Origin: Trypanosoma brucei
Taxonomy: Eukaryota
Assembly: GCA_000002445.1 (NCBI GenBank)
Contig: CM000208.1
Span: forward strand, 3,648,001 to 3,712,000
DNA length: 64,000 bases
Direction of reading: 5' to 3'
The stretch's first letter is position 1, and every line of letters begins with the position of its first letter. Of this stretch, positions 44,116-49,424 are shown piece by piece. Position numbers and translations under genes: made by a program. The notes below the pieces were generated by a model, which saw only the letters and a list, made by a program, of their open reading frames with translations, was not told where the DNA came from and ran no database searches.

Positions 44116-46500
44116 ATGGCGCTCTCGCTTGTAGTTGGGTTAGCCAGCGATGCGCTGGAGGGCAGACATAACCATGAGAAACGTTTCGAGGCGTTGCGCG
44201 CACAACTCGGTGGAAGCTCCAGTTGGCGTCAGCAGCAATGTGTCGAAGGTGTTTGTGGTACATTTACTCTGGATGTCCCAATTACTGAAGCGGATGTGGA
44301 CCGGTGGGGAACTCTTCTCAGCGAAAGCGCCCCGCCGCCGGCTCCCCCGAATGCCGCTTTTGCTGGAGGTGGTTTTGTTGACGTTGCAGCATTGTTGGCG
44401 ATGGATAATGAGGGAGACCAGCAGCAGGCGGTGCATAAGCTCGCCCCAATGAAGATGTTTGATCCCAACCAGGTGATTAGACCGGCTATGACAAAAGTGC
44501 TTATGCACCGTCGCAAGTGGCTTCCGTACCGGCAGCGCTTGACCGTTTATCAGTGCCGTACCTCAATCATTGATGCGGTTCTCCGAAACTCAGTAGTGCT
44601 CCTTACCGCCCCACCGGGGAGCGGATGTACCCTACAGCTCCCGCAGATCATATGGGAAACAGAGGTGTTTAAGACAAAGCGCCTCATTATTGTTTGTCCC
44701 ACAACTCTCACGGTTCAACGGACCGTGCAACGGCTGCGAGAGGAACGTGGCGAAGAAGCAACGACGACGACAGTGGGTGAGTGCACTCCAATGTGCTATG
44801 GGGTAACCCCGGGTACGCAGATTGTCGTTACGACTCCGGAAATGTTTGTGCGACAGTTGCTATGTGACCCAATACTCCTTCATGTTGGTTGCGTTATATT
44901 TAATGACATTCACATACGTTCTCCAATAACGGAGTTTTCCCTCTCACTTCTTCGTAGCATGTTGCGGACGCGGGACGAGTGTGGCGTGGGACGACTTGGT
45001 AGTGCGCCGCGTGTTGTGGTTTGCTGTCCTGACGACGCGGTTTCTAATACCATTGCAGAGTACTTTGGAGCTGACCACAGTATGCAGCTGAACCTCCAAC
45101 AGGTGCTTCAACGGGATGTCAAGACGGGGGCAGCCGATGCACTGCGAAGCAGCGGCTCGTACGCATCACCGGTTGTACTCTACCTTGAAGAAACTATGCA
45201 GTGGCTCACAAAGTGCGAGGAGGAGGGAAGCTTTTTGTGTCGTGACCCTGGAGAGGAACTCCGGTGCTATGTGGAAAACATTGGAGTTGTTGCAAAAATA
45301 ATGGCCATGGAAAATGCGGATTTCATGTCAGATGAAAAATTTCGCTCCCACTGGTGCCCTCTCATAGTAAACGCAATTCAGCAACATAGTTTAGCGGAGC
45401 GTAAGGAGCGTGCGACCTTGCTAGCGGAAAATAAGGAAGGGAAGCATCAAGAACTTCGGCAGGGTCACACGGTAGTGGTTGTTGTCGCACCCAACCCTCA
45501 AGTAGTGGCAACTATTGCCCATGCATTGCGCCAGGTGAATGACCAACAGAGGGAGGGGAAAGAAATGGCTCCTTCCATTACTGTTGAAGTATTGCGGGAA
45601 TGCACCACCTCTGATGAATTGCGTCTTCTTTTACGAGAAGGCGGTACGGCAGTGGAGGGCGGTGATCGTTTAGTGTTAGTGGCCACTCCTATTGTGGCAC
45701 AAACTGCGCTTCCACCGTCACTGTCAGTGGGCCTCGTGATTGACTGTGCCCGCCGCTCTTGTGCCACATATAACCCAAATGTTGACACTGATGTATTTTC
45801 CACTTCGTATAGTTACATACAGGAATTGCGGCAACGACGTTCAATTGCCCGTGTGTGTGTGGATAATTCAGGCAAGAAGGAGGAGGAGAGTGGCGTCCCA
45901 GCCCCCATGGTACTGCAGCTAATACCGAAATCTATCCTACACAGCGCCCAACACCGACGTGTGAGCTCTGATCCTGCACACCATTCCATTTTCCACTTAC
46001 CTTGGGTGGATTATGTGCATATATATCACCTGCTGCAAGCCCATGAAGAGGCCTTGTGTTGCCGTGGTCCGTCATCAGCATCCGCCATAGGCAGTTCTCA
46101 CACTGGAAATCTATTGTCACGGAATGTACCCCAACTCGTGTCATCTGCCTTTATCGGTGTTGCTTCACTATCCGCTAGCCGTTATGAGCATCTTAAACGT
46201 ATCTTCATTGCTGTAGAAAATCATTTGGTTCGCCTAGGACACTTGCAGAGACCAAGTGAGGAGCAGTTTGTACCTCGACTTCTGCCACTGGGCGTGGTCA
46301 CGACGTGCTTCGCCCTCCCTATTCCGGTGCTTCGGCTGTTGGTGTGGTCGCGATTGTATGGATGTGTTGTTCCCGCGAGCGTCGTAGCGGCGATTTGGAT
46401 GCTGGGTGATATTTTTTGCACTGTTCAGCACGATGATGAAGCTGCTGAACTTATGCGAGAGTCACGTGTATTTTTTCACATGGCTCCGGGAGCGATGTAG
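44116..46500 (+). CDS. DEAH/RHA-family helicase-like protein with degenerate catalytic motifs (probable pseudohelicase)
   Basis: Collinear matches to DEAH-box motifs, each with catalytic residues replaced. Motif I is APPGSGCTLQLPQ (GETGSGKTTQxPQ, K->C). Motif Ia is CPTTLTVQRTVQRL (CTQPRRVAAmSVAkRV). Motif Ib is TPEMFVRQ (TDGMLLRE). Motif II is DPILLHVGCVIFNDIHIRSP (DPLLskYSvIilDEAHERtl). Motif III is CCPDDAVSNTIAEYF (MSATLDAEKFSeYF). The stop at 46498-46500 directly abuts the next ORF. Confidence 0.75.
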   Translation: MALSLVVGLASDALEGRHNHEKRFEALRAQLGGSSSWRQQQCVEGVCGTFTLDVPITEADVDRWGTLLSESAPPPAPPNAAFAGGGFVDVAALLAMDNEGDQQQAVHKLAPMKMFDPNQVIRPAMTKVLMHRRKWLPYRQRLTVYQCRTSIIDAVLRNSVVLLTAPPGSGCTLQLPQIIWETEVFKTKRLIIVCPTTLTVQRTVQRLREERGEEATTTTVGECTPMCYGVTPGTQIVVTTPEMFVRQLLCDPILLHVGCVIFNDIHIRSPITEFSLSLLRSMLRTRDECGVGRLGSAPRVVVCCPDDAVSNTIAEYFGADHSMQLNLQQVLQRDVKTGAADALRSSGSYASPVVLYLEETMQWLTKCEEEGSFLCRDPGEELRCYVENIGVVAKIMAMENADFMSDEKFRSHWCPLIVNAIQQHSLAERKERATLLAENKEGKHQELRQGHTVVVVVAPNPQVVATIAHALRQVNDQQREGKEMAPSITVEVLRECTTSDELRLLLREGGTAVEGGDRLVLVATPIVAQTALPPSLSVGLVIDCARRSCATYNPNVDTDVFSTSYSYIQELRQRRSIARVCVDNSGKKEEESGVPAPMVLQLIPKSILHSAQHRRVSSDPAHHSIFHLPWVDYVHIYHLLQAHEEALCCRGPSSASAIGSSHTGNLLSRNVPQLVSSAFIGVASLSASRYEHLKRIFIAVENHLVRLGHLQRPSEEQFVPRLLPLGVVTTCFALPIPVLRLLVWSRLYGCVVPASVVAAIWMLGDIFCTVQHDDEAAELMRESRVFFHMAPGAM

Positions 46501-49424: not shown

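Follow-up and report, generated by a model that had tools for sequence, protein, structure and literature searches.

The window analysed here is a stretch of 64,000 nucleotides (nt) of Trypanosoma brucei brucei TREU927 chromosome 10 (contig CM000208.1, positions 3,648,001 to 3,712,000 of the forward strand), which bears out the kinetoplastid origin recognised in an initial annotation made from the letters of the DNA. Between the genes for histone H3.V and the RNA polymerase subunit AC40/RPAC1, it holds two long open reading frames (ORFs) that meet at a run of six Ts (T6). The upstream ORF starts with an ATG at 44116 and ends with a TAG at 46498-46500, a total of 794 codons. The downstream frame is open from 46449, directly after a TGA at 46446-46448, and continues to a stop at 49422-49424. 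As listed, the downstream ORF begins with a GTG at 46500, and the first ATG in its frame is located at 46524. The two frames overlap by 52 nt and the T6 run, exactly at 46471-46476 in the context gta ttt ttt cac, lies inside this overlap. Re-reading of the DNA confirmed every coordinate given in the initial annotation. At approximately 50% GC, open frames of 794 and 974 codons are not the product of chance. But how are the two frames related? Are they separate genes, one gene read through a programmed shift, or one gene with a missing base? Passing from the upstream to the downstream frame on the T6 sequence requires a -1 shift, equivalent to the insertion of one base. With one T added to the run, as had been suggested, the DNA reads through as one ORF of 1,769 codons that no stop interrupts.

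Comparison with other strains offers a direct answer: both ORFs are halves of one conserved 1,769-aa (amino acid) gene, and the position of the lesion, its size and its restriction to this one sequence can be read from the alignments. The T. brucei-group set consists of seven assemblies, namely T. b. gambiense DAL972, T. b. equiperdum, T. equiperdum OVI and four Logan assemblies (ERR7929157, ERR7929159, ERR7929161 and ERR7929163). When the repaired protein was used as a query, seven proteins clustered with it at 99% identity and 100% coverage, all of them 1,768-1,769 aa long, in good agreement with the single gene of ~1,780 aa, split by a one-base change in T6, that the initial annotation had put forward. 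Intact alleles are already annotated in DAL972 (CBH16772.1/XP_011779036.1), T. equiperdum OVI (SCU68362.1) and T. b. equiperdum (RHW68935.1, ‘DEAD/DEAH box helicase, putative’). When the DNA was compared, all seven loci had seven Ts (T7) where the window has T6, with otherwise identical flanks, and the junction peptide of the seven relatives, RESRVFFSHGSGSDVVSAFHAYRMW, is an exact match to the reconstruction with one T added. A tryptic peptide spanning the junction, VFFSHGSGSDVVSAFHAYR, marks the intact protein. The DAL972, OVI and T. b. equiperdum alleles resemble the window in several respects (same locus, same flanking genes, 98.9-99.8% nucleotide identity and, after one T is restored, an identical junction peptide), but they have T7 and one ORF of 1,769 aa instead of T6 and two ORFs. 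The closest allele is that of OVI, 99.81% identical over the gene and with this T as the sole gap, while the other six share ~98.9-99.0% nucleotide identity with the window over the gene.

Is the missing T one of many small differences? A comparison with DAL972 over 43-60 kb, and with T. equiperdum OVI and T. b. equiperdum over 43-52.4 kb, shows just one indel that breaks a coding frame, the T at 46471. The remaining indels fall in intergenic homopolymers or microsatellites, except for one compensating in-frame 3-nt pair at 48703/48729. This pair sits in a CTT/TCT microsatellite (48703-48738), where it shifts one serine within a Ser-rich stretch, and it divides two haplotype groups: TREU927 and OVI (99.8% identical) on one side, and DAL972, T. 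b. equiperdum and two of the four ERR79291xx assemblies (~98.9%) on the other. The other two ERR79291xx assemblies are similarly divergent and carry only one of the two indels, resulting in a protein of 1,768 aa. Three amino-acid changes are private to TREU927 (V353, I636 and M1695/1696). An exact look-up of both half-proteins in a collection of 15 billion protein sequences found neither of them, so the collection provides no independent T6 contig. The cluster of seven does not include the repaired TREU927 protein, and no TREU927-derived T7 contig was found in the collection.

Beyond the T. brucei group, every distant orthologue is one protein of ~1,750-2,000 aa; those found belong to T. vivax, T. 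cruzi, T. grayi, T. melophagium, T. conorhini, T. rangeli, Phytomonas, Leishmania and Porcisia. One further distant orthologue, P0018 from EukProt, has a TBCC domain match which may reflect a fused gene model. The order H3.V, one long ORF, RPAC1, UTP11 and kinesin is the same in the window and in the T. vivax and T. cruzi loci compared. This settles in the affirmative the question, raised in the initial annotation, of whether the orthologue is one continuous ORF. In T. vivax a CYTH gene is also found 5' of H3.V, as in the window, and in T. cruzi a gene with an ANF_receptor domain is placed between H3.V and the long ORF. No T. congolense orthologue was among the matches of the search with the repaired protein, whereas those of T. 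vivax and T. cruzi were. Conservation is high at the break itself. In 14 orthologues, from T. vivax to Leishmania and Phytomonas, the ungapped block (E/S)AR.FFS.(D/G)SGSDVVSAF.AY.MW runs over the junction, with E782, D794, Y802 and W805 invariant around it. The junction codons are TTC TTT TCA in T. vivax and TTC TTT TCT in T. cruzi, and the long T run is therefore specific to T. brucei.

What does the repaired gene encode? The best description is a DExH-like helicase specific to kinetoplastids. Pfam recognises a RecA1 domain (PF00270, DEAD) at residues 149-267, with an E value of 1.2e-6 and 28.8 bits for a cut-off of 26. A profile of the orthologues compared with the PDB supports this RecA1-like assignment with E values of 2e-25 to 1e-13; DHX36/CG9323 is matched at 2e-25, and DHX29 and Prp2 are matched as well. 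Positions 709-861 of the same profile continue unbroken over the junction in their alignment to the HA2 region of DHX29 (1060-1204, 30 bits) and of Drosophila CG9323/DHX36 (622-763, 19 bits). An AlphaFold2 (AF2) model of residues 560-1060 has a mean predicted local distance difference test score (pLDDT) of 59, which is medium confidence, rising to 70-88 in the helical core, and it places the junction in a short loop between helices 215-228 and 235-249 of the modelled segment. Foldseek comparison of this model with the PDB retrieved only the C-terminal winged-helix/ratchet/OB modules of DEAH/RHA helicases, among them DHX29, DHX36, DHX37, Prp43, DHX8, Prp2, MLE and HrpA (E values of 1e-6 to 1e-4 over ~350 columns). 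Profile and model thus agree in placing the frameshift within a predicted helicase-associated winged-helix/ratchet (HA2)/OB module. Pfam HA2 and OB_NTP_bind gave no match in the orthologues scanned, though the profile and fold comparison recover the module. Pfam Helicase_C (PF00271) matched none of the 14 orthologues, and the profile contributes just a 1-bit stretch against CG9323 462-538. Further downstream, Pfam Surp matches the T. brucei protein with an E value of 0.11 and 4 of the 14 orthologues with a best E value of 0.0046; the motif itself is strongly conserved.

Would such a protein be an active helicase? The Walker A lysine of the GxGKT consensus is missing in T. brucei (GSGCT) and in 12 other orthologues (GSGRT), and GSGKT is found only in P0018. 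In place of the DExH of motif II, T. brucei has NDIH, the orthologues have DDxH or NDxH and T. grayi has NDIN, so that the glutamate is replaced; Asp264 is kept in all orthologues and His266 in all except T. grayi. In origin and build the protein is a DExH helicase, but judged by these motifs it departs from the canonical active members of the family. Its catalytic site is probably degenerate, and the gene may encode a putative catalytically inactive ‘pseudo-helicase’ conserved across trypanosomatids.

Could the window nevertheless contain two genuinely separate, adjacent genes? The bare presence of the stop at 46498-46500 and of the ATG at 46524 is all that speaks for this, and we give it next to no chance. 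The other 11 gene-to-gene spacers of the window measure 718-6,341 nt, and the gap of 0-24 nt seen here is therefore far outside the local range. The initial annotation had argued that such a spacer is too short for the processing signals of a trypanosomatid intergenic region (a polypyrimidine tract, an AG acceptor and room for a poly(A) site), and the pyrimidine content agrees with it. Across the whole window, 166 of the 185 pyrimidine runs of at least 10 nt are intergenic; in 46300-46560 there is none, and the longest run there is 8 nt. The putative second gene would also lack a credible start, as the ATG at 46524 encodes the methionine of a conserved YRMWL motif inside a helix. In addition, the break falls inside a folded domain and all homologues are single proteins.

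Another possible reading is recoding. The full-length protein could be made from the T6 sequence by -1 ribosomal or transcriptional slippage on the U/T run, or the downstream half could be translated by termination-reinitiation at the ATG at 46524. Indeed, the conserved junction is exactly what slipping by -1 on UUU UUU would produce, and a mere 24 nt separate the stop from the next ATG. If T6 were real and slippage or reinitiation took place, this would be one of the rare instances in which a nuclear gene of a trypanosome is recoded. However, the site is not a canonical X XXY YYZ slippery heptamer: in the zero frame it reads gtA UUU UUU cac, and because its first base is A the P-site tRNA could not fully re-pair. 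No stable RNA structure follows either, as the 94 nt from 46477 to 46570 fold with -33.3 kcal/mol compared with a shuffle mean of -31.65 (z -0.46). In the seven close relatives, as in all annotated orthologues, the junction is read without any shift of frame, and there is no conserved indication of recoding, since T. vivax and T. cruzi lack the long T run. Reinitiation would have to take place at a codon inside a conserved helix. Recoding had been judged much less likely than an indel from the outset, and with neither heptamer, structure nor conservation to support it we regard it as highly improbable.

This leaves a single gene with a missing T, but is the T missing from the cells or only from the reference? 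Our preferred reading, to which we assign a probability of about 75%, is that TREU927 cells keep at least one intact T7 copy, either because the reference is in error or because the T6 allele is present on one haplotype. A T7 homopolymer would have been recorded as T6 in the TREU927 chromosome 10 reference, bringing a TAG into frame after seven wrong codons. This would leave the ORF of 794 codons and, behind it, 982 sense codons in an orphaned frame. The missing T would be a reference-sequence error or a very recent allele, possibly on one of the two haplotypes, and either way the lineage would have used the full-length protein until now. The state of the downstream half is instructive in this regard. 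Its 974 codons contain no further stop or indel, and the codon changes private to TREU927 downstream of the break comprise five synonymous and one non-synonymous. If 72% of random changes were non-synonymous, the share assumed for neutrality, the probability of seeing one or fewer would be ~0.008. With the frame intact and the private changes mostly synonymous, any inactivation must be very recent, and we infer that the lesion is artefactual or recent.

Several points weigh against this reading. The synonymous excess is based on six private changes only. The compared region is otherwise free of coding indel errors, and since there is only one, the assembly is not generally prone to them, which slightly weakens the case for an error. 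The missing deposited protein would also be explained if annotators had taken the frameshift to be genuine. Alternatively, T6 could be a genuine, fixed (homozygous) TREU927 allele, making the gene a young unitary pseudogene or a truncation allele. Cells would produce only a truncated protein of 794 aa that stops half-way through the ratchet domain and has no OB region, SURP-like motif or C-terminal domain. What could be expected of a unitary pseudogene is only partly seen. There is a disabling lesion relative to intact orthologues, a 1-nt deletion leading to a TAG after seven out-of-frame codons, whereas the 974 downstream codons have no sign of relaxed constraint. A fixed T6 would fit a reference with no other coding indel in the compared 43-60 kb and with no protein deposited, as annotators do for accepted frameshifts; moreover, T. 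brucei commonly carries alleles with frameshifts, whose mRNAs escape degradation (PMC8445201). Set against this are the T7 of all seven other strains, the conservation of the gene across trypanosomatids and the absence of any secondary lesion from the 974 downstream codons, where the private changes are mostly synonymous; this would require the inactivation to be very recent. We therefore consider a fixed T6 unlikely and retain an intact copy in TREU927 cells as the preferred reading. The coordinates of the gene, its parts and its neighbours are collected in Table 1.

Table 1. The split gene, its parts and the neighbouring genes (positions counted from the first nucleotide of the window)
Feature	Position	Strand	Accession	Basis
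Whole gene, kinetoplastid DExH-like helicase/SURP-like protein, 1,769 aa once repaired	44116..49424	+		Fused ORF 99% identical over 100% of its length to P0001, DAL972 and T. equiperdum proteins
In-frame N-terminal part, codons 1-787: RecA1-like, divergent middle, winged-helix and first half of the ratchet (HA2) helices	44116..46476	+		Translation, Pfam DEAD, profile
Degenerate Walker A GSGCT (canonical helicase: GSGKT)	44617..44631	+		
Degenerate motif II NDIH (canonical helicase: DEAH)	44902..44913	+		
Helicase-associated (HA2/ratchet) stretch cut by the frameshift	46273..46664	+		Orthologue profile, AF2 model, Foldseek
T6 homopolymer, site of the one-base shortening	46471..46476	+		T7 in 7/7 other T. 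brucei-group sequences
C-terminal part in the -1 frame, codons 788-1769 (982 sense codons) of the intact protein: second half of the ratchet helices, OB-like beta region, SURP-like motif and conserved C-terminal domain	46476..49424	+		Many invariant residues across 14 trypanosomatid proteins
Out-of-frame tail HMAPGAM + TAG, made by the frameshift	46477..46500	+		Present in 0 homologues
First ATG of the downstream frame, M of the conserved YRMWL motif in an HA2 helix	46524..46526	+		Motif AY(R/H)(M/T)W conserved in 14/14 orthologues
SURP-like motif QEAKFLKMYPDLFAFLDPEHEFHGYYLHVLRR	47820..47930	+		Weak Pfam match, E 0.11
LRRC56 homologue	529-2784		EAN78887	ORF product identical to the TREU927 chromosome 10 GenBank protein
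Methionine aminopeptidase			EAN78888	Exact TREU927 protein match
CH-domain protein			EAN78889	Exact TREU927 protein match
Protein kinase			EAN78891	Exact TREU927 protein match
451-aa hypothetical protein			EAN78892	Exact TREU927 protein match
CYTH protein			EAN78894	Exact TREU927 protein match
Histone H3.V	38448-38867		EAN78895	Exact TREU927 protein match
RNA polymerase subunit AC40/RPAC1			EAN78896	Exact TREU927 protein match
UTP11	52462-53502		EAN78897	Exact TREU927 protein match
Kinesin	54385-57672		EAN78898	Exact TREU927 protein match

The split gene sits between H3.V and RPAC1, whose accessions are consecutive, and therefore no TREU927 protein has been deposited for this locus. Which systematic name does it carry? 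H3.V is Tb927.10.15350 (PMC12400321), AC40/RPAC1 is Tb927.10.15370 (PMC11894013) and the kinesin, FAZ7, is Tb927.10.15390 (PMC4406125). One study lists Tb927.10.15360 as ‘P-loop hydrolase?’, recovered with 3% coverage in a pull-down of MKT1 (PMC3985637); by the order of the identifiers and this description, it would correspond to the present locus. Tbg972.10.18680, the single literature match for an orthologue identifier, turned out to be a different gene, and a literature search for Leishmania or Lister 427 gene identifiers of the orthologue gave nothing relevant. The ORF at 37313-37798, a candidate for H3.V, was discarded once the gene was located at the position given in Table 1.

The neighbourhood has some features of its own. 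Between ~22300 and 44100 the spacers are unusually long and AT-rich (2.6-6.3 kb, GC 29-40%), compared with 0.7-2.3 kb and ~50% GC elsewhere, and they flank only three short genes, those for the 451-aa protein, the CYTH protein and H3.V. Scans of the whole window for tRNAs and Rfam families, AT-rich spacers included, found nothing. Just 3' of the CYTH gene, 35906-36127 is a perfect tandem duplication (107-bp unit, 2.1 copies, 100% match). The CYTH gene itself, with ORFs at 33425-33946 and 33994-35811 and a DAL972 model of 699 aa, was entertained as a second split gene and rejected: the deposited TREU927 protein has 605 aa, and the N-terminus of the DAL972 model is over-extended through pyrimidine-rich 5' sequence. 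The product of the ORF at 11800-16836 (1,678 aa) has no exact match in the protein collection, while all other large ORF products of the window that were tested have one; the start chosen in the deposited model is probably another one. In this region genes are often broken in one assembly only, and some are modelled differently between assemblies. UTP11 has 258 aa in DAL972 and 346 aa in the window, the kinesin is split into 149 + 722 aa in T. b. equiperdum, and the LRRC56 homologue is split into 456 + 336 aa in T. equiperdum OVI.

Why does a single T matter? This is an ordinary problem of sequencing error or allele and not new biology, and the locus comes with a systematic name (if the assignment above holds) and intact annotated alleles in sister strains. 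The main value is in curation, since trypanosomatid genomics takes the TREU927 reference as its annotation template. Proteomics databases, orthology tables, the design of RNA interference targets and tagging screens will overlook or misjudge a conserved gene of 1,769 aa if it lacks a protein entry there or seems truncated. Nothing is biologically new if T6 is an error or a variant of one haplotype. If it is real and homozygous, a pan-trypanosomatid DExH/SURP-like protein would be dispensable in a fully tsetse-transmissible strain, which would be modestly interesting.

How does the locus compare with known systems? The encoded protein resembles DEAH/RHA helicases such as DHX29, DHX36, Prp43, DHX8 and DHX37 in its RecA1-like domain, in the HA2 region aligned over the junction and in the predicted fold of residues 560-1060. 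It differs from them in the Walker A lysine, which is replaced by arginine in trypanosomatids and by cysteine in T. brucei, in the change of DEAH to DDxH/NDxH and in ~800 additional C-terminal residues with the SURP-like motif. For the break itself, the closest parallels come from the same species. Cosentino et al. 2021 (PMC8445201) reported that one gene, Tb927.2.5860/Tb927.2.5870, had been split by mistake in the TREU927 assembly, the very reference genome considered here; the text of that study and the supplementary tables searched do not mention the present locus. In T. brucei Lister 427, 123 putative genes differ in coding-sequence length between the two alleles, for example through allele-specific premature stops, and transcript levels are unaffected by these stops (PMC8445201). 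Both are problems of the same kind as that of the present locus: in the first, one gene shows up as two adjacent ORFs, and in the second, a 1-bp indel on one haplotype results in a short ORF with a second ORF behind it.

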